This document shows, piece after piece, positions 27,548 through 63,222 of a stretch of DNA of 64,000 bases. The stretch is from contig CBFHQJ010000014.1 of the NCBI GenBank assembly GCA_965657795.1, forward strand, positions 923 through 64,922, read 5' to 3'. The DNA comes from Akkermansiaceae bacterium (GTDB lineage Bacteria; Verrucomicrobiota; Verrucomicrobiia; Verrucomicrobiales; Akkermansiaceae). The notes beneath the pieces were generated by a model, which was not told the DNA's origin, did no database searches, and saw only the letters and a program-made list of their open reading frames with translations. The translations under genes and the position numbers were made by a program. Every line of letters begins with the position of its first letter. Position 1 is the first letter of the stretch.

Positions 27548-29947
27548 ATGAGACTCCTCCTTAAAGGCCTCCTAACCTCTCTTCTCCTCACCACAAAGTC
27601 CCTCGCCGGCCCCAACGTTGGCCCGTTCCTCGAGGAAGAAACTCCCTTCGTCTCATCCGCGCTCCTCATCCCTAAAGGCAAAGCGATTGACCCGGTGCGC
27701 CGCGGCATCCTCATCCGCCTCAGTGACGACCACTGGGCATGCTTCGACACCGACTTGCTTCGCTGGGCCGCCGTTTGGAAAGCCCCCGCCGGAAAGCCAC
27801 CCCTCAGTCTCGATTCGATGGCGGCCATCTCCTATCCCAAGGGAAAGGCCAAAGCCAAGTCTCCTCCCTCACTGCAAGGCACCCTCCTCTTTTCCTCACC
27901 CACCCTGCCCGGCGGAGGCCCGGACGGCCCGTCAAAAAACGACCCCCGCCCAACTCTTCCCGGCGATGCCACGAAACCAATCGGCCCCTTCCCCAAAGAA
28001 TCCGGCCGCTGGCTCGGCATCGAACTCCGCGGTAAAACGCCCGTCCTTCAATACCGTTTGGCTGATGCCATCATCCATGAAACCATCATAAAAAGAGGGG
28101 CCGAATTCAGAAGAATCATAGAAGTGTCTCCTCACCAAAGGAACATCCACCTCATTCCCGGAGCCTTCTTCTCCCACCTCCACAAATTCCCGCTCGATTC
28201 CTCGATGCAGATCCTTCCCCCCTCAATCAACTCAGGCACCCTGACCTATTCCAATCAACCCACCTCACTCTCCACCCTCCCCGACAAAGAACCAGCAACG
28301 CCCGCTTTCCCGCACGGCCACACCTTCACCAATTCCACTTCCAAGATTCAGGGAGCTTACTCCATCCGGCAACTCGCTCTTCCCGAAACCCCTCGCTTCG
28401 TCCGCCCCACAGATCTGGCCTTCCTTTCAGACGGAACCGGACTTCTCGCCACTCTCGATGGCGACATCTGGCGGATCGAAACCCCCGGGGCCAAAACCTC
28501 CCGCTGGACCCGCATCGCTTTTGGGCTTTTCGAAACGATCTCAATCGAAGTCACACCTGGCGATCGCATCTTCACCCTCGGCCGCGATCAAATCACCGAG
28601 CTCATCGACACCAACGACGATAGCTTCATCGACTTCTATCGAAATGCCTCCAACGCTTTTCACCAAACCCTCCACACCCGCGATTTCGCCACCTCCCTCG
28701 CCATCGCAAAAGACGGGTCCTTCTTCATCGCCAAAGGAGGAATTCACAGTCCGGGCAAGGGAATGCACAACGAGCTCTCGACTCATCGCGGGACCATCTT
28801 AAAAATCTCCCCCGATGGTGACACCGCCTCAGTTCTCGCCGACGGCCTCCGGATTCCCTACGTCGGACTTCGTTCCGATCAAACCCCGTTCGCCTCCGAC
28901 CAACAAGGCCACCACGTCCCCAGCACTCCCGTTCACCAACTGCAATTCACTCCATCCCTCGGCTTCGCCCCCACAAACCATCGCGAGCTCAAAACCACCG
29001 AGCCACTCCTCTGGTTTCCCTATCAAGCCAACCGGTCCGCCGCCGCCTTCACCCAATGGGATGATCTCTTTCTTCAAGTCTCGTGGGGCGGACGCTTTTT
29101 TGTCATCGAAACCCCGGAATCGGGCCAGCCCTTCTCCTGGCAACTCCCGCTTCAACTTGACTTCCCCTCACTCAACGCCACCCGACATCCTCTTTCCGGG
29201 AAACTCTACGTCACCGGCCTCGGTATCTCCGGCTACAAGCCCACCACCCCAAACCTCAGCGGCATCGCTTCCATAGAGGAAACGACCAAGCTCCCAAAAC
29301 CCAGCTCTTTCGATGTTCAGGGTGATTCCATCACGGTCATTTTCGATCGGCCTCTCTCAAAGGATGAAACCATCATTCCTGCCAGCCCCGCCCTGCGATT
29401 ATTCAATATCAAACGAAGCGGAAAATACGGCTCGGGCCACTACCGATGGGACGGAAAACCCGGAGAACACCGACTGCAACCTGCCACCATTTCTCTCTCC
29501 GATGATCGTCGTACTTTAACCCTCACCTTCCCCATCCTCGGACGCTCGGACATCCTCGATCTTCATCTCACCCTCTCCTCCGGAACAACCATCGCCCCCA
29601 TCCATCTCTTTTCCCGGCCGGCCCACCTTCCCAAGGCCGACCTCAGCGCATTGGCCAATTTCGAAAAGGCCAAGCCTACTCTTAAGCCCGGGAACTCAAA
29701 AGCCGGCAAAGGGCTTTTCACCACCTATGCCTGTGCCGGATGCCACTCCCTTGATGGAGCAAAATTGGTCGGCCCCACCCTTAAGGGAGTCGCCACCCGT
29801 TCCGACGAAGCCTTCCTCCGACAATCCATCCTTGAGCCAGCCGCCGTCGTCACCCAGGGCTTCGAACCCTCCATGCCCTCCTTCGCCGGCGTTCTCACCG
29901 ATCAACAACTCGCCGACCTCCTCGCCTACCTCAAAACCCTCCGCTAG
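27548..29947 (+). CDS. Secreted beta-propeller-like protein with C-terminal cytochrome c domain
   Basis: ATG at 27548 gives the signal peptide MRLLLKGLLTSLLLTTKSLAG. The C-terminus has 'FTTYACAGCHSLDGAKLVGPTLKG...FEPSMPSFAG' (CxxCH plus a distal Met). Confidence 0.7.
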   Translation: MRLLLKGLLTSLLLTTKSLAGPNVGPFLEEETPFVSSALLIPKGKAIDPVRRGILIRLSDDHWACFDTDLLRWAAVWKAPAGKPPLSLDSMAAISYPKGKAKAKSPPSLQGTLLFSSPTLPGGGPDGPSKNDPRPTLPGDATKPIGPFPKESGRWLGIELRGKTPVLQYRLADAIIHETIIKRGAEFRRIIEVSPHQRNIHLIPGAFFSHLHKFPLDSSMQILPPSINSGTLTYSNQPTSLSTLPDKEPATPAFPHGHTFTNSTSKIQGAYSIRQLALPETPRFVRPTDLAFLSDGTGLLATLDGDIWRIETPGAKTSRWTRIAFGLFETISIEVTPGDRIFTLGRDQITELIDTNDDSFIDFYRNASNAFHQTLHTRDFATSLAIAKDGSFFIAKGGIHSPGKGMHNELSTHRGTILKISPDGDTASVLADGLRIPYVGLRSDQTPFASDQQGHHVPSTPVHQLQFTPSLGFAPTNHRELKTTEPLLWFPYQANRSAAAFTQWDDLFLQVSWGGRFFVIETPESGQPFSWQLPLQLDFPSLNATRHPLSGKLYVTGLGISGYKPTTPNLSGIASIEETTKLPKPSSFDVQGDSITVIFDRPLSKDETIIPASPALRLFNIKRSGKYGSGHYRWDGKPGEHRLQPATISLSDDRRTLTLTFPILGRSDILDLHLTLSSGTTIAPIHLFSRPAHLPKADLSALANFEKAKPTLKPGNSKAGKGLFTTYACAGCHSLDGAKLVGPTLKGVATRSDEAFLRQSILEPAAVVTQGFEPSMPSFAGVLTDQQLADLLAYLKTLR

Positions 29948-29950
29948 GGA

Positions 29951-31799
29951 ATGGATCCCTCTCTCTTTTTCAACGCCTTCATCTATCTCGCCGCTGCGAC
30001 CCTTGCTGCGCCACTCGGTCGTCGCCTCGGCATCGGAGCCGTTCTGGGCTATCTCGTTGTCGGAGCCATCATCGGACCCGCTTGTTTTGGCTTCACCGGA
30101 GAACACTTCAGAGGAAGTCCTTCACTTCGCAGAGTTCGGCGTGGTCCTCATGCTCTTCGTCATCGGACTGGAACTCGATCTTGGAAAACTCTGGCGCATG
30201 CGCACCTCCATCTTCGGACTCGGAGGATTGCAGCTCACTCTGTCCGCCGGAGCGCTCGCTCTCGCTGCCGGATTTCTCGCTTCGGATTGGAGGGAAGCCC
30301 TTGGCCTCGGTCTCATCCTCGCCCTTTCCTCAACCGCCATTGTGATGCAGACCCTGAAGGAACGCGGCCTCACTGAAACCAGCTCCGGCAAACAGGGCTT
30401 CACCGTCCTCCTCTTCCAGGACATCGCCGTCATCCCCATCCTCGCTTTCCTTCCCACACTTGCTCATCGCACCGTTTCGGATTCATCGGCAGGACATCAT
30501 TCCGAATCCGCGATCACCAACTGGATCAATAGCCTCCCGGCCTGGGGTGAAGGTCTGGTCATTCTTGCCGCGATCGCCGTCATCATTCTCATTGGCAAAT
30601 TCGCCCTCAGGCCCTGGCTTCGCTTGGTCGCCCGGCCCAAGGTTCCCGAAGCACTCAACGCAACCACCCTCACCCTTGTGATCGGCACCGCTCTCCTCAT
30701 GAATTCAGTTGGCCTCTCCCCCGCGCTCGGCACCTTCGTCGCCGGAGTTATGCTGGCAAGCAGCCCCTATCGACACGAACTCGAGGCCAATATCGAGCCT
30801 TTCAAATCTCTCCTCCTCGCCGTCTTCTTCCTCGCCGTCTGAGCCAGTATCAACTTCCCCCTCATCGCTGCCCAACCGCTCTCTATCGCTGGATTTGTGG
30901 TCATTCTTATCGCGGTCAAAGCCCTGGTGCTCTTCATCCTTTCCAAGATTTTTCATCTCTCCCTCGACCAAGGCCTTCTCTTCTCCGTTGCCCTCGCTCA
31001 AGGCGGTGAGTTTGCTTTCGTCCTCGGCGGCTTCGCGGTCAGCAACGGCGTCCTCAGCCCGGAGATCACCGCCCAAATGATCGCCGCAGTGGCCCTGTCA
31101 ATGGCCCTCTCGCCCATTCTCCTCATCGCCCTGCAACGCCTCGTTCTCCCTAGACTTGGCACCACCGAAGCGGAAGCCCCTCCCGAACCCGATGTCGAAA
31201 ACGATCACTCCCGGGTCCTCCTCGCTGGCTTCGGACGTTTCGGCCACCCCATCATCCGTCTCCTGCGCAGTGCCGGTCACATGCCCACCGTCCTTGAGCA
31301 GGATAGCGACCACGTCGACTTCATCCGCCGCATCGGCCTCAAGTGTTATTATGGTGACGCCACCCGGCTCGAGCTCCTGCACGCCGCCGGAGCTTCCGAA
31401 GCCGAAATTCTCATCATCGCCATCGATGACGAAGACGCGTGCATGGAAATCATCCACCATGCCGCAAAACACTTCCCTCACCTTCACATCCTCGCCCGGG
31501 CTTGCTCACGCGACCACGCCTACCTGCTTCACGAAGCCAAGGTCGACTACTTCATCGAACAGCTTGGTTCCTCCCTCGACTGCGCCATCAAATCCCTCGA
31601 CCTCCTCGGCCACGATCTCAATCACGCCAAGGATGCCGCCCGCCGATTCAAAGAGAAGGAAATCGAATCGATCGAAAACCTCGCCGCTTATCGCGGCGAC
31701 CAAAATCAATACATCAACGCCGCCAATCAAAACCTCCGCGATCTCGACAATCTCCTCGAGAATGCCCCGCTCAAGACTGACCCACCGCAATCCGAGTAG
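29951..31799 (+). pseudogene. KefB/KefC-type CPA2 K+/H+ antiporter with C-terminal RCK (TrkA-N) domain, carrying a frameshift (~30085-30100) and an in-frame TGA (30840-30842)
   Basis: The gene is split into three pieces. (1) From ATG 29951: MDPSLFFNAFIYLAAATLAAPLGRRLGIGAVLGYLVVGAIIGP.... (2) After a frame change: ...EEVLHFAEFGVVLMLFVIGLELD...LLFQDIAVIP...EPFKSLLLAVFFLAV*. (3) Same frame as piece 2: ASINFPLI...AQGGEFAFVL...LLAGFGRFG (RCK). Colinear with E. coli KefC as I recall it. Confidence 0.75.
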
Positions 31800-54189: not shown

Positions 54190-55508
54190 AGAGAAATCAT
54201 TCCGTTGCTATCGCCGAACTTTTCGACTTTCACGCCAGCTTTGTCGAGTAGCGTCAGGTGTAAATTCGCAAGTGCAGTCGGCTCGTCGAACTGGAGATGA
54301 CGCCCGCCTTTCACTCCGCCTGCGGCTCCTCCGGCAACAATGACGGGGAGGTTTTGGTGGTCATGAACGTTGGGATTGCCCATGCCGCTGCCATAAAGGA
54401 AAAGCGAATGATCAAGGAGCGAACCACTCCCGTCGGAGGTCGCTTTCATCTTCTCAAGGAACTCTGCAAAGAGCGAAACGTGGAAGGCATTGATCTTCGA
54501 CATGCGCTCAATCTTCGCGGCGTCGTTTCCGTGGTGGGAAAGCGGGTGGTGCGGATCAGTGACCCCGGTCTCGGGATAGACCCGGTTACTCGTCTCGCGG
54601 GCCAATTGAAAGGTCGTGATCCGGGTGATGTCCCCCTGGAAGGCCAGCAGCTGAAGCTCAAACATGAGACGGGCATGATCACGATAGGAAGCCGGGACAC
54701 CGTCGGGACGATCCAGATCCGTGAGCGCTTCGTCACGGGTCGCGGCTTCGGCTTTTTGAATGCGGCGCTCGATTTCGCGAACCGAAGTCAGGTAGTCATC
54801 GACCTTCGAACGATCAGCGGGGCCAAGCTCACGCTTCAGGCTTTGCAGATCGTTGTTCACGAAGTCGAGAAGGCTCGCCTTTTTCTTCAAAGCAGATCGA
54901 CGTTGCTGCGCGCTGCCACCTTCTCCAAAAAGGCTCTCAAAGATCAGTCGTGGATGAGCCTCGGCTGGAAGCGGGGTTGTCGGCGAAGACCATGATAGAT
55001 TGTTCTGATAAACGCAGGCGTAGCCATTGTCGCACTGTCCAACCGTCTGCATGAGGTCCATTGACATCTCAAGCGAAGAGAGCTGCGTTTCCTTCCCGAT
55101 GTGCTGGGCCGCGATTTGATCTACGGTCGTTCCAAGAAAATAATCCGCACTTTCGGTTTGCCGGGCTTGCGCCGCGCTCAGGAAGGCCGAGTTGGACGTG
55201 GCGTGTGTCCCGGGATAAGCAGGCTGCAATTCCAGGTTCGAAAAAATGTTCACGTGTTCCCGAACCGGAACGAGGGAATTTAGAATGGGCGAAAGTTCGT
55301 CGAGGGTGTCCTTGCTCTTCGGAGTCCAACGGGAGAGATCACACCCCATCGGCATGAAAACAAAGCCGAGACGCTTAACCGGTTTCGCAGCCGTCAGCTT
55401 GGCCGCTGTCGCCGCCGGAATCATGGCATCAAGCAAGGGAAGAGCGACTGCGGATCCGAAACCCCGGAGAACGGTGCGCCGGGAGAGAGCTTTTTTGGTA
55501 ATGATCAT
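54186..55508 (-). CDS. DUF1552 domain protein (Tat-signal)
   Basis: The N-terminus 'MIITKKALSRRTVLRGFGSAVALPLLDAM' is the characteristic DUF1552 opening. 440 aa. ATGA overlap with the upstream DUF1592-type gene. Confidence 0.75.
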   Translation of the reverse strand: MIITKKALSRRTVLRGFGSAVALPLLDAMIPAATAAKLTAAKPVKRLGFVFMPMGCDLSRWTPKSKDTLDELSPILNSLVPVREHVNIFSNLELQPAYPGTHATSNSAFLSAAQARQTESADYFLGTTVDQIAAQHIGKETQLSSLEMSMDLMQTVGQCDNGYACVYQNNLSWSSPTTPLPAEAHPRLIFESLFGEGGSAQQRRSALKKKASLLDFVNNDLQSLKRELGPADRSKVDDYLTSVREIERRIQKAEAATRDEALTDLDRPDGVPASYRDHARLMFELQLLAFQGDITRITTFQLARETSNRVYPETGVTDPHHPLSHHGNDAAKIERMSKINAFHVSLFAEFLEKMKATSDGSGSLLDHSLFLYGSGMGNPNVHDHQNLPVIVAGGAAGGVKGGRHLQFDEPTALANLHLTLLDKAGVKVEKFGDSNGMISL

Positions 55509-57706
55509 TGTCTCTGTCGATGGGTGAAGGGAGCACTTTGGGTGATCCCCAAGATTAGATCGCTGAGACGATACTCCGGAGCGGCCTTGCGGACAATCTC
55601 GCGGAGCGCAGGAGCATCGAAATACTCCACACCTCTGCCGAGGGCATAAGTTAGCATTTTTTCGCTGATCGTTCTAGCAAAGAGGTCGGGGCGCTCCAGC
55701 AAGGCCTCTTCCAGTGGATCAACGCCGGTGAAGGTCCGACCATCGGGCAGTCCGCCCACGGCATCCACTTCGCCGGTGATGAAGCGGCCAACGGCATCGT
55801 ATTCCTCCAGGGCAAACCCGGGAGGGTCCATGAGCTTGTGGCATGACGCGCACGACTTATCCTGACTGTGTGCTGCGAGCTTCTCGCGCATTGGCAAATC
55901 GTCCGCTACCACGACATCATCCAAGGCCGGGACCTCGGGCGGTGGAGGCGGAGCGGGAGTCCCCAGAATATTTTCGAGCACCCAGTTTCCGCGGATCACC
56001 GGTGAAGTACGGTTCGCATAAGAGGTCACCGTCAGAATACTTCCCTGACGTAACAAGCCACCACGCTGCATCGAAGAGTCAAGTTCAACCCGACGAAACC
56101 GGCTCCCGTAAATATGAGGAATGCCATAGTGCCTCGCCAACCGCTCATTAAAAAAGGTGAAATCAGCCCCAATCAAATCAACCACCTTTCGATTTTCGTG
56201 AAGAACCGTTTGAAAGAGAAGTTCAGTCTCACGCTTGAAGGACTGGCGGAGATTATCATCGAAGTCCGGAAAGAGCCTCAGGTCGGGCGTCACCCCATCG
56301 AGATTTCGAAGTTGTAACCACTGGTTGGCGAAATTGGTCGCCAGCGATTCTGCTCTTGGGTCCGCTAACATCCGTCTGACTTGCCTGACCAAAACCTCTG
56401 ACTTGGAAAGGTCGGCATCGAGCAACTCGTGATCGGGCAAGCTGCTCCAAAGAAAAAACGAAAGCCGCGTCGCCAACTGATGATTTGGCAAGCGGTAAAC
56501 CTCGCCCGCCTCAATCGCTTCCGAATCATTCTCTACTCGAAACAGAAACCTCGGACTCACCAAAATTGCTGCCACCGCCATTTCGAGGCTCTCATCTAAA
56601 AAAGGCTCAATCGCCTTCAAATCCTTTGGAGTGATTTCACGACGGTAAGCCAGCCGCATCAACCCGGGGAGGTCTTTCTCTTCAAAGCGGGGCTTCCCGG
56701 ATTTCGCATTGAAAGGTCCGGTCAAACTCACCTGAAAGATGGCAGGAGCCTGCCTCGGATGACGGTGAAAATTGAACTCGGCATGATAAGGCTGCCTCTT
56801 CGTTTCTAGAACCGAGGTGGGCTTTTTCGGAAAAGTTACGCCAACTTCATGAGTCCCCCCCGGAACCATCAGGCGCACATTGAGGTGGGCATCGACATAA
56901 TCGTGATTTCGGTTCTTCGGCCGCCCAACGACAAAGGATTTCACCGGTTTACCATCTATTAACAACTCAACCTCGTGCTTTCCTCCGATCAATCCCTCCA
57001 CCTCCTCGTTTCGGTCGCGGGCGAGGCGGATTTCAAATTCATACTCGCCATTCACCGGAAAAGTGTGCTCAAAAAGCACCCCGCCCCGCGTCCCGAGCGG
57101 AAGCCCTTGCACATGTTCCTTCTGGCTTCGATCAGCTGGAATCCGAACCACCCGGAGATCGGGCGAGTCATAAGAACTCCCCACCGCAATGCGCGCGATT
57201 TTCTTGGCCGCGCCGAGATAGCGATTCAGCAAAGTCGGTGAGAGTTCACCCACCGTAATGTTGTCAAAGCCATGGCTCGACTCATCCTTCGGCAACATCT
57301 CACCAACCTCGACCGAGACTCCCAGAAGATCCCGGACGGCATTCTGATACTCGGTCCGCGTGAGCCGTCGCATTGCGGGAACCTTCCCAAGCTGCCGCTT
57401 CCGTTTTGCGAATCCATCCAGATAACTCTTCAACCCGGCAAGCATCTCATCATACTCCTGCGAGGACGGCCGATCCTTTTTCGGAGGTGGCATTTGCCGG
57501 GAATCCATCCGCAAAATGGCATGCTCCCAAACCTCCCAATGCTTTGCTGGATCCGCATCGACAATCTCTCCAAGATCCAATCCACCCTTCGTGATCCCGT
57601 CGCCATGGCAATCAATGCAGTAAGTCTCCACAAAATCCGCCACCGGAGGCTTCGCTTGAAGAAGTCCAAGCGCAACCACGTTCAGCAAAGTCAATCGAAT
57701 CATCAT
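55505..57706 (-). CDS. DUF1587/DUF1592/DUF1595/DUF1588/DUF1585-type protein with an N-terminal CxxCH motif
   Basis: 733 aa. 'ETYCIDCHGDG' near the N-terminus and a second 'CASCHKLMDPPGFALEEYD' near the C-terminus. This is the usual partner of DUF1552 proteins in PVC genomes. Confidence 0.7.
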   Translation of the reverse strand: MMIRLTLLNVVALGLLQAKPPVADFVETYCIDCHGDGITKGGLDLGEIVDADPAKHWEVWEHAILRMDSRQMPPPKKDRPSSQEYDEMLAGLKSYLDGFAKRKRQLGKVPAMRRLTRTEYQNAVRDLLGVSVEVGEMLPKDESSHGFDNITVGELSPTLLNRYLGAAKKIARIAVGSSYDSPDLRVVRIPADRSQKEHVQGLPLGTRGGVLFEHTFPVNGEYEFEIRLARDRNEEVEGLIGGKHEVELLIDGKPVKSFVVGRPKNRNHDYVDAHLNVRLMVPGGTHEVGVTFPKKPTSVLETKRQPYHAEFNFHRHPRQAPAIFQVSLTGPFNAKSGKPRFEEKDLPGLMRLAYRREITPKDLKAIEPFLDESLEMAVAAILVSPRFLFRVENDSEAIEAGEVYRLPNHQLATRLSFFLWSSLPDHELLDADLSKSEVLVRQVRRMLADPRAESLATNFANQWLQLRNLDGVTPDLRLFPDFDDNLRQSFKRETELLFQTVLHENRKVVDLIGADFTFFNERLARHYGIPHIYGSRFRRVELDSSMQRGGLLRQGSILTVTSYANRTSPVIRGNWVLENILGTPAPPPPPEVPALDDVVVADDLPMREKLAAHSQDKSCASCHKLMDPPGFALEEYDAVGRFITGEVDAVGGLPDGRTFTGVDPLEEALLERPDLFARTISEKMLTYALGRGVEYFDAPALREIVRKAAPEYRLSDLILGITQSAPFTHRQRQ

Positions 57707-58082: not shown

Positions 58083-59234
58083 CTACCTCGCTTTGGGGAA
58101 GTTCTTAAGGATATCGGAAAGATCATCGGATTTCTTTCGATTGCTTTTCTCCTTATCTTTGGGAGAGGGTTCACCATCAAGAGTCTCCGAGCGTTTCGCC
58201 GGAGTCCTGCCATTCGAGTTGGTGGAGACAAAAGCCGATTTCCCCTTGCCGACCAGAGGTGTCGGATCATTTTCAAAGGTTCGATAATCCATCAAGGGAT
58301 GCTTGATGGAGAATGCGTTCCCCATCAATACTTCTTTCTTTGTCTTCCCGGCGAAGATATTTCCAGGCTCCGTTTCGGAGATCAAATTGAAGGAGGAAAA
58401 AGGACTGCCTGATTGAGCCGCCTCAATCTGGTCGGAATCAAATCCGAGTTCCTCAAGCCGATCGCGATGAGCTTGCCGCACCACCTCATTCACCGAACCC
58501 GGGGCCTTTTCCATCTCTGCGAAAAGGTCTTTTGCAAAATTGGCCTCTTCAAGCAGGTCTTCGGCCGAAAGATATCCGTTCGCTGCATGGAAGATTTTCC
58601 CCTCCGGTGTCAGGAAAAGCGTCTGCACATTCTGCCCTCCCACTCCACGGGTACAGCTCCCGGGCAGATCATCCGGCTGATGCCAGATCGATTTTCCGGC
58701 CGTCGGATCGCCAGTCGTATTTGTAAAGGTATTCACGAAGTCCTGGTTGAGCAGGCTGCGAACTTTGCGGTCTGAGAACGACACGGTTCTCATGGTATGA
58801 CCGGCACTTCACATCCCGTCATCCAGCTTGCCTAAAACGCGGAACCACATCACCGGTCGATCGCCGCCCGCACCTCCGTTCGCCTGTTCGAGGGCGTCTT
58901 CGATCTCCGGCTGCCAGGTTATTCCATGCAGCTTAATCGGCCCGCCCCCTTTCTGCCTTGGAGCCGACTTCGGGGCATGCTCATCGACATAGGCCTGATC
59001 TTTGGTGCTCAGCTTGGAAAGCGGCACTTCGACCAACCTTGAATCGTCCTTCCTGAGGGTCACTTTGCCGGTGATGGAATTAAATGATACTAAGGAGGCT
59101 TTCACGGAATACTTTCCGTCCTCGCTCGACCACTGTCTGTGGGCTTCCCCGGCTGTGGCAAAAAACAAGCCTAGCCCGAAGGCCGCTCCGCCCACAAGGA
59201 GCGATCTTAGTTTTGGATTTGATAGTGTTCTCAT
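58083..59234 (-). CDS. Secreted SHD1-like + thioredoxin-fold protein with an in-frame TGA (58809-58811) at the redox-Cys position; candidate selenoprotein (alternative: pseudogene)
   Basis: ATG 59234 gives the signal peptide MRTLSNPKLRSLLVGGAAFGLGLFFATAGEA. SHD1-like 'WSSEDGKYSVKASLVSFNSITGKVTLRKDDSRLVEVPLSKLSTKDQAYV'. Then '...DRPVMWFRVLGKLDDGM-TGA-SAGHTMRTVSFSDRKVRSLLNQDFVN...'. ORF-track pieces 58809..59432 and 58083..58793 are in the same frame, separated by TGA + 5 codons. Confidence 0.5.
58774..58791 (-). other. SECIS-like hairpin 17 nt downstream of the in-frame TGA
   Basis: mRNA sense: GAGAAC (58791-58786) / CGUGUC / GUUCUC (58779-58774), a perfect 6-bp stem with a 6-nt loop. An outer GGUC...GACC pairing is possible across an asymmetric internal loop. 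Confidence 0.4.
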
Positions 59235-59389
59235 AGTTTTAATGGGATTTAGAGCAGCCAGAAACCGCCCTTCACAGCAGAAAGCGGCAGGCTCCCGAAA
59301 ACACATCTGCACCAGACAGAAAAAATTCTGCCGACACTCGCCGCAACCTTGCACCTTTTGAAGAAGTGTCGCCTTTGATAGTCTAACCC

Positions 59390-61322
59390 ATGCTTGCTGG
59401 CTTTTTTTGTGTCGTTTTCCTGGGATTGTCAAGTCTCATCATCGGCTGCCGGGACTGCGAAAGAAAAGCTGCGATTCCTCCCGGTATTGGAAAATCAGAT
59501 CAAGAGTCGCTGGATCAACGGATCGATCAAATCCCCGCCGTTGCTTCTCCAGGCGTCGGGATGAATCAGGCAGAACAAGAGCTTGGCTACAAAATCCAGA
59601 AACATGGAACGGCTGCCGCCGATGCTCTGGTTCCGCTCCTTACAACAGATGACGAAGATATTTACGACCTCGTCGCGTATTGCATCAACGATCTTAATGC
59701 GGACTACCTCAAACCGCGTCATCTTGACCCTATCGCGAAAGCTGCTCGTCAGAATCGCAGTTGGTTGCCCAATGCCATCGCTGACATCAACACACCCGAA
59801 GCGATTGAATTCCTCGCCAAGGATTTCCGCCGTGCTCCGCAAACCATGGCACAAATCGACAATGCGCTGGAACGACGCGCTCCCGAATCGATCCTCCCGC
59901 TCATCCGTGAATTCAGGCAGGCCACTGAAGCTGAAACTGAATTCATGGATGCCCTTGTTCCTCTCTTCAAAGACTGTGGCACACGGGCAAGTGAAGCGGT
60001 CGCTCCGCTCCTTGAGATTTCCCTTGATGAAACCCAAGCCGCCTTCCGAAGACTTGCCGCGATCAAGCTTCTCGGAGCCATTGGGCCTTCTTCCCGAACC
60101 ACATTTCCCGAGTTGCAAAAACTCGCCAAAAAAAATCAGGATGTTTTTGGGGAACCAGTTCAGGATGCCATCGCCAGCAGCCGCACTCCCGAGGCCGCTG
60201 ACATCCTCCTCCCGCCAGTGATTTCCGCCACACGCGCGGAGCAAAACTACTATGCTCTCGGAGATTTCGCCACTGAACTTGGACACGCCGCTAAACACCT
60301 CGCACCTGAACTAGCTAAACATCTCAATGACCCCGACCCATACCTTCGCCTCGGTGCCTGTCGCTCGCTCGGCCATCTTGGCGATCCAAGTGTCTGGCCC
60401 CAATTGATCGAGAAACTTGAATCACAGAATTGGCAGATCGCTTATTCCGCGGTTCTTTCACTGACTCAACTGGGAGCGGTCGAAAGCCAACCGGCCCTCG
60501 AAAAATGTCGCGACCACTATTAGTTCCCCCGGGTCAAACATGCCGCTGACTATGCTCTCCGCAGACTCGCTGGAAAAGAGCCCACCAAGCTGGATTTTGA
60601 GAGACTCGGAAGCCCCTTCAACACCTCCATCGAAGACAGCTACAGCACCTTTGATTCTGAAGACAGCACACTTTGGCCCCTCAATGACCTGGGCGAGATC
60701 CCTCTGGCTACCGGTAAGAATAAAGGCCACCTCGAACTCTATTTTGCGCTCCCTCCAGATGACGATTTTTGGATCGAAATTCGCGAGCAGAAAAAGGGGG
60801 ACGGATGCTTGCAAACGGGCTATCCCGAAATTTTCCAATCCCTGCTCAGGACAATGCTGAAAGTTGGAAGAACAACGACTTAAGCGGCCCCTGGATCCAG
60901 ATGATCAGATTCAGGAAAACGACCTTTGTTTTCCTAGGTTCCCATGGAGAGAATCGAGGCGTTTATATCATCGAAAATGGACAACCACCCAAGAAAACCT
61001 CCTCGGAAATCACGAAATCAATGACACTTTGGAACGATGAAATCGTTCTGACTGAAGGGTCGAGACATATGGGAATAGACATTGGAAATCTTCACCGGAT
61101 TTTGAAGAAGGACGGAGTTTGGACCGTCGATCCCTGGCTGCCCCTGCCTGGCTGCCCCTGCCTGGCTACCCTGAATCCTCCGGCATCCTGAAGAACGGGA
61201 GACTCTTTGCCAATTGCAGCGACGGCGCGATCGCCCTGACGAAAGATGGTATTCTTGAATACCTGGGATCAGGGACAGAACCCAAGCCCGACCAATCTTT
61301 CTTACCAGCTCTAGGCGACTGA
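59390..61322 (+). pseudogene. HEAT-repeat lipoprotein with a C-terminal extension, carrying three lesions: in-frame TAG (60521-60523), a frameshift (~60840-60880), and a 14-bp tandem duplication (61134-61161)
   Basis: Lipobox 'LSSLIIGC'. HEAT-like repeats run up to '...ALEKCRDHY*FPRVKHAADYALRRLAGKEP...'. The frame stays open for about 120 further codons after the TAG with no start codon. The protein-like sequence then continues in frame 1 (SWKNNDLSGPWIQMIRF...VWTVDPWLPLPG), and after the duplication in frame 3 (YPESSGILKNGRLFANCSDGAIALTKDGILEYLG...*). Confidence 0.6.
61134..61167 (+). repeat. Tandem direct repeat CTGGCTGCCCCTGC x2 plus a partial third copy (CTGGCT)
   Basis: 61134-61147 and 61148-61161 are identical, and 61162-61167 repeats the first 6 nt. 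Removing one 14-nt copy restores a continuous frame: ...VDPWLPLPGYPESSGILKNG.... Confidence 0.85.
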
Positions 61323-61831: not shown

Positions 61832-62638
61832 TCAGGAGGTCTTCGCCAAAGCAACCACCACCTCTTGTTTGGAAACGACCACTCCTCCGGGTTGTTCCAG
61901 CGTAATGACAAAAGCTTTGGGATCATTCACGACGAGAGGATTACGAATCGGAATAATCGTAGTCCCATCGCCGGTCGGAATATCAAACACACCACCGTCG
62001 ACAGGCTTTTCATACCGGCCGGGATCTACGATCCAGAGCTGGTATTGCTTCGCCGTCGGTTCATTGGCGGGAAGATTGGTCAGAGTCATGTAACCCTCCT
62101 GCATGGAATCACTCCAAACGACTTTCCCGCTCATCCCTTCGTAAGCCTCAACACCGCCGAACTCAGACTCGACGATGTCATTCGCCTTGCCGAGCAGCGA
62201 CTGCATCGCTTCAGCTGGCGAAGGTGGCGAAGGTGGAGGATTATCGGCAGTTTCTCCCTGCGACTCAGGCGCTGAATCCATCATAAATTTTCCGACCAGC
62301 AGAATTGCCAGCACCGCAGCAACCAGCCAGGCCGTTTCGGAATCACCGGCAATCTTACGCCAAATCGAAGGACGGACAACTTTCTCCTCTTCCGATTCAG
62401 GCAACACGAAGTCCGACATCCCCGCCTCGAGCTCTTTGAGGAGATTCCGGGGAAGTTCCTCTTCGTTTTCAAAATTTGATTCGAGGGCAGCCGCCGTTAT
62501 CTCCAGCGACAAGTCAACCTCACAACGGGGATCCTTCGAAAGCTCTTCCCACTCCGCCAATTCGGCGGCATCGAGATCACCGAGAATCCGGCCGGCTTCG
62601 AGCTCTTCGAATCGGTCTAAAATTTCCTGATCGTGCAT
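61832..62638 (-). CDS. Anti-sigma factor, RskA-type (zinc-finger-less N-terminus, TM segment, extracytoplasmic RskA domain)
   Basis: TM segment 'TAWLVAAVLAILLVGKFMM'. The C-terminal 'KQYQLWIVDPGRYEKPVDGGVFDIP...VITLEQPGGVVVSKQEVVVALAK' is typical of the anti-sigma-K RskA C-terminal domain. The ATG overlaps the sigma gene by 22 nt. Confidence 0.7.
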   Translation of the reverse strand: MHDQEILDRFEELEAGRILGDLDAAELAEWEELSKDPRCEVDLSLEITAAALESNFENEEELPRNLLKELEAGMSDFVLPESEEEKVVRPSIWRKIAGDSETAWLVAAVLAILLVGKFMMDSAPESQGETADNPPPSPPSPAEAMQSLLGKANDIVESEFGGVEAYEGMSGKVVWSDSMQEGYMTLTNLPANEPTAKQYQLWIVDPGRYEKPVDGGVFDIPTGDGTTIIPIRNPLVVNDPKAFVITLEQPGGVVVSKQEVVVALAKTS

Positions 62639-63222
62639 GGCTTTGGGTTGGAGGTGGTTTGATCGCCGTCGAGTCGGCGAAGTTTGTTTCGCAAGTCGAT
62701 CAATCCGCGCCGAAGCCGCGTTTTCACAGTGCCAAGAGGCAGGCCGGTTTGCTCGACAATTTCGGGGTGGGTCATTCCTTGTTCAAAGTGGAGTAGGAAA
62801 AGATGGCGGGTCTCTTCAGGCAATTCCTGCAACGCGGCCTGCACGTCTGCGCTCTCACATTGCAAGCTTGCAGTGGATTCAACCGAGGCCTGCGGGAGCG
62901 AATCAGCCTCCGGAAGTGGTTCCAGGAGAGGTCGCCGACTCTCCTTGCGAACAAAGTCGATCGCCCGGCGCCGCGCAAGCATGCCGACGAAAGTAGTCTC
63001 GGTCGCGATCGCCGAATTGAACCGCTTTGCAGACCTCCAAAGATCGGTAAAAGTTTCCTGAACAACGTCCTCCGCAGCGGAGTGGTCACGCACATGTTTT
63101 CTGGCGATGGACCAGACGAGAGAGCCCAATTTGTTAATGCACTTTTCCATGGCTTGCTCGCTTCCTCCGGCAACCTCCAGGAGGATCCCGCTATCTGACG
63201 AAGCTTGAGGTCGATCAGTCAC
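62617..63222 (-). CDS. ECF-type RNA polymerase sigma-70 factor
   Basis: Region 2: 'AEDVVQETFTDLWRSAKRF...TFVGMLARRRAIDFVRKE'. Region 4: 'LPEETRHLFLLHFEQGMTHPEIVEQTGLPLGTVKTRLRRGLIDLRNKL'. A GTG start at 63222 is needed to include the 'LLEVAGGSEQAMEKCINKLGSLVWSIARK' helix. Confidence 0.85.
   Translation of the reverse strand: MTDRPQASSDSGILLEVAGGSEQAMEKCINKLGSLVWSIARKHVRDHSAAEDVVQETFTDLWRSAKRFNSAIATETTFVGMLARRRAIDFVRKESRRPLLEPLPEADSLPQASVESTASLQCESADVQAALQELPEETRHLFLLHFEQGMTHPEIVEQTGLPLGTVKTRLRRGLIDLRNKLRRLDGDQTTSNPKPCTIRKF

Follow-up and report, generated by a model that had tools for sequence, protein, structure and literature searches.

We describe here a gene on the minus strand (58083..59234) of a 64,000-nucleotide stretch of Akkermansiaceae bacterium contig CBFHQJ010000014.1, below called the window, that contains an in-frame TGA. 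Very probably, this TGA is a genuine selenocysteine (Sec, U) codon in an undescribed selenoprotein family. The codon stands at one and the same column in homologues from two phyla, and cysteine takes its place in a few relatives. A hairpin shortly downstream carries the mark of selection at the RNA level, the protein belongs to a thioredoxin-fold class in which this column is the nucleophilic Cys, and in most related genomes the gene adjoins that of an extracytoplasmic function (ECF) sigma factor.

Conservation of the in-frame TGA and architecture of the protein

Two open reading frames (ORFs) at 58809..59432 and 58083..58793 of the minus strand share one frame, and public gene calls treat them as two ORFs. 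The junction reads RPVMWFRVLGKLDDGM-TGA(58811..58809)-SAGHT-MRTVSFSDRKVRSLLNQDFVN, with five sense codons between the TGA and the ATG chosen by gene callers; read more widely it is GDRPVMWFRVLGKLDDGM-TGA-SAGHTMRTVSFSDRKVRSLLNQDFVN. Between position 59234 and the terminal TAG (58085..58083) the TGA is the sole internal stop, and there is no frameshift, neither here nor in a full-length alignment with 26 homologues. Translation thus bore out what had originally been predicted from the sequence, namely two minus-strand pieces in one frame, parted by a TGA and five sense codons, and a single lesion with no second stop and no frameshift. The ATG at 59234 is the probable start codon, because the N-terminus is then first basic and then hydrophobic, as it is in the homologues.

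A homologue search with the joined protein (U entered as C) returned 85 proteins, nearly all of them 210-240 residues long and covering the post-TGA part only. These truncated entries, named "hypothetical protein" in their source, almost all start with MRTVSFS, and two others, P0028 and P0070, are upstream fragments ending in RPVMWFRVLGKLDDGM (...DDGM). An exhaustive hidden Markov model (HMM) profile search of 1.84 billion representatives gave 439 hits, 201 of them below 1e-10; nearly all are gene calls that begin one to five residues into the profile, at the Met five codons past the TGA. A second, word-indexed search with the full-length profile brought up the C-terminal fragments already known, without adding any N-terminal or Cys forms.

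DNA of 44 relatives was taken from species-representative genomes, and 43 of these loci include the upstream DNA. They comprise three metagenome-assembled genomes (MAGs) of Verrucomicrobiota/Akkermansiaceae, the others belonging to Pirellulaceae, Planctomycetaceae, Mariniblastus, Aureliella, Rubripirellula and Fuerstiella. Every one of the 43 loci, in Verrucomicrobiota and Planctomycetota alike, has TGA in this column. With amino-acid identities of 35 to 72%, they are not copies of one contaminant. The TGA sits within the invariant block RP..(W/C)(F/L)RVLG....M-U-SAGH.MRTV(S/T)FS, with M-U-S-A-G-H-x-M-R as the invariant motif around the column itself. Upstream of it, the frame is open in all 43 loci and encodes the conserved block, an SHD1-like domain and a signal-peptide-like N-terminus; both halves of the gene are under strong purifying selection. 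The Ser codon that follows the UGA (58806..58808 in the window) is always AGY and never TCN in these loci, and the base after the UGA is therefore always A.

Cysteine in homologues at a UGA column is the standard in-silico criterion for selenoproteins. The original prediction had asked for Cys or Sec/TGA in this column, and both occur: beside the 43 TGA loci, the homologues P0114, P0119 and P0122 read ...GPM-C-SA(S/A)H(R/A)MR... and P0209 reads ...DA-C-SGF.... In both Cys forms whose DNA was read (L047 and L049) the codon is TGC and the gene is a single continuous ORF. Such Cys forms are rare, and they have S or A at position +3 instead of the Gly that is invariant in the Sec forms. Two divergent proteins carry other residues in the column, Trp in P0217 (A-W-S-A-A-H) and Tyr in P0142 (V-Y-S-A-S-H); if these members are real, the catalytic residue would not be universal in the wider family.

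The encoded protein is modular (Table 1). A signal-peptide-like layout is common to the homologues, and residues 3-21 form an N-terminal helix in the Cys-form model. The SLA1 homology domain 1 (SHD1) that follows matches PF03983 with E = 2.1e-9 (37.5 bits, cutoff 23.7) and was matched in 20 of the 27 full-length homologues; the family profile furthermore matches PDB entry 2hbp (E = 8e-7). Residues 105-257 show a weak match to the Pfam family Thioredox_DsbH/DUF255 (PF03190; E = 8.9e-5), as do 14 of the 27 homologues at E <= 0.01. When the family profile was compared by hhalign with the C-terminal domain of Escherichia coli DsbD (probability 74%, E = 2.7e-5), Sec aligned to the nucleophilic Cys461 and Gly145 to Cys464 of the DsbD C-V-A-C motif. 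The aligned family string is KPIMWFRVLGDL.GFM-U-SAG-HRMRTVSFS.P.VQ..L, with KPVM of DsbD matched to RPVM.

Structural evidence comes from an AlphaFold model of the Cys form P0122 (78-row alignment), which has a mean pLDDT of 84.6 and exceeds 90 through the core. The model shows, in this order, a signal helix, an SHD1 barrel, a thioredoxin fold and a helical extension, the thioredoxin fold consisting of a strand (120-125), a loop, a helix (135-144) with C-S-A-A-H, two strands and a long helix. Foldseek searches of the PDB with this model retrieved the DsbD-gamma structures 1uc7, 1vrs and 2fwh (target-normalised TM 0.58-0.65, probability 1.00), the DUF255 protein 3ira and the Thioredox_DsbH protein 7tkv (both probability 1.00), as well as the SHD1 structure 2hbp. 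When the PDB was searched by sequence, the single protein and the family profile each matched the SHD1 domain only, and the C-terminal piece modelled alone (pLDDT 76.6) had no significant Foldseek match because the fold is truncated in it. The C-terminal extension matched no family; it includes a conserved block, F..HPL....F..DP..LVG.G.S.F, whose helices have high pLDDT in the models.

Invariant positions of the family include W107, P127, R132, M141, U142, S143, A144, G145, H146, M148 and R149, and further H185, Q201, N202, Q204, T209, H216 and E230. A CxxC dithiol is absent: the motif is U-S-A-G, whose Gly at +3 never varies among the Sec forms, and the second Cys is missing from the Cys forms as well. 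An alignment by eye had originally placed the TGA on the first Cys of a CxxC motif, and hhalign, the weak Pfam match and Foldseek on the Cys-form model agree with this placement. The predicted fusion to SHD1 scores above the Pfam threshold, and the proposed U-S-A-G motif without a resolving Cys proved invariant in the alignment. Separately, the upstream fragment P0028 (274 aa, from a Logan contig of 2110 nt) matches the N-terminal part of the window protein at 93% identity and has a fasciclin domain (PF02469) joined to it in the middle of the SHD1 region, as either a gene fusion or an assembly chimera.

The hairpin downstream of the TGA

The hairpin GAGAAC-CGUGUC-GUUCUC (58791..58774) starts 17 nt past the TGA. 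Its core stem of six base pairs (58791..58786 paired with 58779..58774) is perfect and extends to seven with the flanking U-A pair. The 6-nt loop begins 23 nt past the UGA and has G at position 2 and GU at positions 2-3. These features are those of the original prediction, which had described a perfect 6-bp stem 17 nt past the TGA with G at loop position 2 and the loop about 23 nt away. Folded alone with the U-A pair, the hairpin reaches -8.1 kcal/mol (z = -3.57), and 2 of 200 shuffled sequences were as good. The published consensus for bacterial Sec insertion sequence (SECIS) elements gives a loop of 3-9 nt, a stem of 4-16 bp, a distance of 16-37 nt from the UGA, a minimum free energy of <= -7.5 kcal/mol and a G among the first two loop bases that is followed by U (PMC13188914). 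The hairpin agrees with this consensus in every respect (6-nt loop, 6-7 bp stem, 23 nt, -8.1 kcal/mol).

The same hairpin recurs in 43/43 homologous loci. RNAalifold recovered the six pairs, none of which is broken in any of the 43 sequences, and the stem varies only by A-U becoming G-U, which affects one pair in 17 sequences and another pair in 1 sequence. A per-column codon table of these sequences shows a synonymous entropy of 0 only at codons +8 to +11, which are fixed as ACC GTG (T/A)CG TTC, while Arg +7, at the start of the hairpin, is encoded by AGA or AGG only, never by CGN, and with AGG the base pair persists as G-U. The frozen codons coincide exactly with the bases of stem and loop. 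Neighbouring invariant residues use several codons each (R-10, 5; L-8, 5; G-7, 4; A+2, 3; G+3, 4; H+4, 2). This pattern points clearly to selection on the RNA sequence itself, beyond the needs of the protein, and it is the frozen synonymous sites, not compensatory changes, that support the hairpin. CGC/CGA and GTT stand in this peptide region of the two Cys forms examined, whose RNA cannot form the hairpin; the corresponding stretch from L047 folds with z = +0.17. A search of the whole window with Rfam at gathering thresholds gave no match, as expected, because bacterial SECIS elements are short and lie in coding regions.

Table 1. Position of the candidate selenoprotein gene, its elements and the neighbouring regulatory genes in the window
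Feature	Position	Strand	Details and basis
Complete candidate selenoprotein gene	58083..59234	-	383 codons, putative Sec at codon 142, stop TAG 58085..58083
Predicted signal peptide, residues 1 to ~30 (MRTLSNPKLRSLLVGGAAFGLGLFFATAGEA)	59145..59234	-	Basic n-region, hydrophobic core, small residues before the cut, by eye
SHD1, residues 32-88	58971..59141	-	Pfam PF03983
Thioredoxin-fold domain, DsbD-gamma/DUF255 type, ~residues 100-260	58455..58937	-	Pfam, hhalign, Foldseek on the model of a relative
UGA codon, probably read as Sec (residue 142), in invariant M-U-S-A-G-H	58809..58811	-	Conservation, Cys homologues, DsbD alignment
Putative bacterial SECIS-type hairpin U-GAGAAC/CGUGUC/GUUCUC-A	58773..58792	-	Fold energy, conservation, agreement with bacterial SECIS consensus
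C-terminal extension: helical region, variable linker, conserved block, low-complexity tail	58086..58454	-	Alignments, models
ECF sigma factor gene, ~3.4 kb upstream	62617..63222	-	Pfam Sigma70_r2 7e-16, Sigma70_r4_2 1e-15
Anti-sigma factor gene, RskA_C domain	61832..62638	-	Pfam PF10099, E = 7.7e-15; overlaps end of sigma gene by 22 nt

Alternative explanations and points against a Sec codon

TGA serves as a normal stop codon in these genomes. Of the 26 longest non-overlapping ORFs in the window, 8 end in it, among them the adjacent gene 55505..57706, and so do 13 of the 43 family genes at their true stop; TGA is not generally reassigned. The alternative that this particular UGA is read through, or reassigned to a standard amino acid such as Trp, Cys or Gly, could draw on the Trp of the distant P0217 and the Tyr of P0142 in the column, and on the absence of Sec machinery from the sequence searched. 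It is nevertheless very unlikely, given that TGA is a normal stop in the window and the family, that close relatives have Cys in the column, where thioredoxin folds carry their nucleophilic Cys, and that a dedicated hairpin placed at SECIS distance marks SelB-dependent recoding.

Equally improbable, in our view, are two separate genes, an SHD1 protein that ends at the TGA and a second protein that starts at the ATG 15 nt further on, with the hairpin serving translational coupling or regulation. In favour of such an arrangement, the ATG five codons past the TGA is invariant in 43/43 loci, all automatic annotations call two ORFs, and no Sec machinery was seen in the window or in 640 kb of loci. 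The break, however, would cut the thioredoxin fold between strand beta-1 and helix alpha-1, precisely at the catalytic residue, and the Cys forms run through the same point as single continuous ORFs with TGC in the column. The Met itself falls inside helix alpha-1 in the hhalign alignment to DsbD-gamma, and DUF255 proteins have a conserved Met after CxxCH. Moreover, no Shine-Dalgarno-like sequence was seen by eye before the ATG, and the hairpin fits the SECIS consensus in both position and loop.

A plain nonsense mutation in a recently inactivated pseudogene of a decaying genome, which the original prediction had treated as a serious alternative in view of several damaged genes noted in the window and which an in-frame TGA in a Kef-like gene (30840..30842) might favour, is refuted and has next to no probability left, because 43/43 homologues, from two phyla and with 35-72% identity, have the stop in the same column, both halves are under purifying selection with no frameshifts, the synonymous sites of the hairpin are frozen, and public gene calls across hundreds of clusters all begin just past the TGA.

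A scan of the window for ORF-TGA-ORF junctions found 39. Both sides looked coding at the Kef-like locus alone, which has no convincing hairpin. This Kef-type antiporter-like gene (29727..31799, plus strand) reads FKSLLLAVFFLAV-TGA-ASINFPLIAAQ at its TGA, with flanking frames of 440 and 318 codons, and the TGA there looks like a nonsense lesion.

Several observations weigh against the selenoprotein assignment, or against parts of the picture built on it. The Kef-like TGA makes some decay of the window genome possible. The hairpin shows no compensatory covariation among the 43 sequences because the stem is invariant apart from A-U/G-U changes; the original prediction had looked for a hairpin that is conserved and co-varies in homologues, and its first half stands, with frozen synonymous sites in addition, while the second does not. 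With 22.9 bits, the Thioredox_DsbH match stays below the gathering cutoff of 27, and the structural evidence stems from a relative, the P0122 model being ~39% identical to the window protein. Cys194, a possible resolving residue, is nearly invariant, with Val in three aligned family members. The sigma/anti-sigma pair of the window lies ~2.6 kb upstream of the gene, with a HEAT-like gene on the opposite strand between them, and the operon link seen in Planctomycetota (see below) therefore does not hold in the window.

Sec machinery was sought in 64 kb of the window genome and in 20-kb pieces of related genomes. ARAGORN predicted no tRNA-Sec for either the 64-kb window or the 44 loci, and tblastn with E. 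coli SelA, SelB and SelD gave no hit in 640 kb of loci, results that also count against a Sec codon and are at the same time uninformative, because the bulk of the genomes lay outside the search. Complete selA/selB/selD sets are known from some Planctomycetes (PMC4807772); for Akkermansiaceae-like Verrucomicrobiota, we found no statement on Sec machinery in the literature.

Gene neighbourhood, proposed function and related systems

The gene neighbourhood was analysed by clustering the ORFs within 8 kb of each family gene. A conserved order of ECF sigma factor gene, gene for a ~550-aa protein and selenoprotein gene emerged in Planctomycetota (28-29 of the 43 loci). The sigma factor (Pfam Sigma70_r2/Sigma70_r4_2) adjoins the selenoprotein gene in 29/43 loci. 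The protein between them, of ~500-650 residues, is encoded on the same strand immediately upstream of the selenoprotein gene and after the sigma gene, ~500-2300 nt upstream (L004-L044; for example L019:7884-9524). A single hydrophobic segment near residues 100-200 is common to most copies, and about half carry NGxxxxFxSxEEF once or twice in their C-terminal part. We regard this protein, which has no Pfam match, as a candidate anti-sigma protein. An 8-Mb contig has this order of sigma gene and ~550-aa protein gene before the Cys form P0114 as well, and the three Verrucomicrobiota loci have the sigma gene just downstream of the selenoprotein gene. In the window itself, the ECF sigma gene may be functionally linked to the selenoprotein gene.

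Other neighbours are less consistent. Large genes of the PSCyt/PSD families (planctomycete cytochrome-like) adjoin both the window gene (55505..57706, minus strand) and a Cys-form gene (L049:1-3502), an adjacency that may be due to chance, as these families are abundant in such phyla; L049 also has an HXXSHH (PF07586) gene. In an Aureliella MAG, ARAGORN made two overlapping tmRNA predictions (L019:16067-16852, minus strand) ~6 kb downstream of the family gene.

On the evidence above, we propose that the locus is one intact gene for an exported selenoprotein of 383 residues, in which the UGA at codon 142 would be recoded to Sec, with the hairpin as the bacterial SECIS element to which SelB-GTP-Sec-tRNA(Sec) is recruited. 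SelB/SECIS recoding is an established bacterial mechanism, and the cis elements at this locus support its use here. When selenium is lacking, termination at the UGA would leave a 141-residue SHD1 fragment. The signal peptide would export the protein, the mature form of which would comprise SHD1, a linker and a thioredoxin fold of the DsbD-gamma/DUF255 class, with Sec at the N-terminus of helix alpha-1, in the place of the nucleophilic Cys461 of DsbD.

A specific redox role and a link to sigma factor signalling are considerably less certain than the Sec codon itself. The invariant Gly at +3 precludes an intramolecular CxxC-type bond, and the site would therefore be a mono-selenol redox centre. 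It could form an intermolecular selenenylsulfide (Se-S) with a Cys of a partner or substrate, or it could be oxidised to a selenenic acid that is then resolved, as in glutathione peroxidase-type and 1-Cys enzymes. Cys194 could be the resolving residue, and His146, His185, His216 and Gln201-Asn202-x-Gln204 are candidate helpers; these conserved His, Gln and Asn residues may shape the active site. A metal-binding role for Sec together with His is likewise conceivable.

The clustering with ECF sigma and candidate anti-sigma genes in most genomes suggests that the protein is part or output of an envelope redox-stress module, an association that is looser in the window than in Planctomycetota. A more far-reaching and rather unlikely possibility is that the selenoprotein is not just a stress output, and instead serves as the extracytoplasmic redox-sensing partner of the ECF sigma/anti-sigma pair. 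Upon contact with an oxidant or electrophile, its lone selenol would reversibly form a selenenylsulfide or selenenic acid and thereby control anti-sigma activity, with SHD1 docking on the periplasmic part of the candidate anti-sigma protein. Docking of SHD1 on the NGxxxxFxSxEEF repeats was considered as well. This idea is weakened by P0114, which lacks SHD1, yet has a neighbour with the repeats, and by the presence of the motif in only about half of the neighbours.

Among known proteins, DsbD-gamma (1uc7, 1vrs, 2fwh) is the best structural neighbour of the Cys-form model; Sec falls on its Cys461, and it is extracytoplasmic, as the new family is predicted to be. DsbD-gamma, however, has a CxxC motif and is fused to a membrane electron-transfer domain, whereas the new family has U/C-S-A-G without a second Cys and is predicted to be soluble and exported, with SHD1 and a long helical C-terminal extension. 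It also has a longer loop before the active site and an invariant Q-N-V-Q block before strand beta-3, which in our reading of the alignment may replace the usual cis-Pro. DUF255/Thioredox_DsbH (PF03190; YyaL, SPATA20; 3ira, 7tkv) is the only thioredoxin-type Pfam family that matched, and U-S-A-G-H-T-M resembles the DUF255 pattern, C-x-x-C-H-x-M. The new family differs from it in the sub-threshold score and in lacking both the second Cys and the C-terminal alpha/alpha-barrel domain.

The known thioredoxin-fold selenoproteins share with the new family the Sec at the N-terminus of alpha-1 and the SECIS element just past the UGA, and several of them are exported. The new family is set apart from them by UxxG, and an SHD1 fusion and an ECF sigma neighbourhood are undescribed in them. 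In the 2026 catalogue, which covers 119 families and subfamilies of prokaryotic selenoproteins, UxxG occurs only in rhodanese-like proteins and arsenite methyltransferases, and that catalogue has no PF03190 or SHD1 entry and no Sec-containing DUF255 protein. NCBIfam, which holds most curated selenoprotein families, returned no family at E <= 1 for the full-length protein (U to C), its selenoprotein models included, and full-text literature searches that combined selenocysteine with DUF255 or SHD1 turned up nothing of relevance. A possible member of the present family is a "hypothetical" Sec candidate without a name, with Cys in Rhodopirellula sallentina, that appears in a planctomycete genome paper of 2016 (PMC4807772, Table S9). 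We conclude that the proteins form a new family within a known class, the thioredoxin-fold bacterial selenoproteins, that is undescribed in NCBIfam, the 2026 catalogue or the papers found.

The gene content of the window furthermore resembles the SigK-RskA system of Mycobacterium tuberculosis. An ECF sigma gene and an RskA_C anti-sigma gene lie upstream of a DsbD-gamma-like, presumably exported protein, and the relative P0028 has a fasciclin domain. The SigK-RskA regulon includes DipZ and the fasciclin proteins Mpt70/Mpt83, and this parallel is a lead only. The candidate anti-sigma proteins of planctomycetes have no RskA_C match, and the likeness is one of gene content. To our knowledge, no selenoprotein belongs to the SigK-RskA regulon.

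In the databases, the 201 clusters of this family (50% identity, E < 1e-10) are filed as two unrelated hypothetical proteins, and a Sec codon would restore one gene from them. The family would extend the prokaryotic selenoproteome, counted at 119 families in a 2026 review, and, if our interpretation is true, Sec is used by many uncultured members of Pirellulaceae and Planctomycetaceae and by Akkermansiaceae-like bacteria. The motif M-TGA-AGY-GCN-GGN-CAY, followed by the invariant hairpin, could serve as a simple marker of Sec use. Being almost wholly of the Sec form and exported according to prediction, with a mono-selenol U-S-A-G-H motif on a DsbD-gamma-like scaffold, the family offers a case for studying why Sec is kept over Cys. 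The link to ECF sigma and candidate anti-sigma factors provides a testable regulatory context, and should the protein indeed act as a sensor, bacterial envelope signalling would have its first signal sensor based on selenocysteine.

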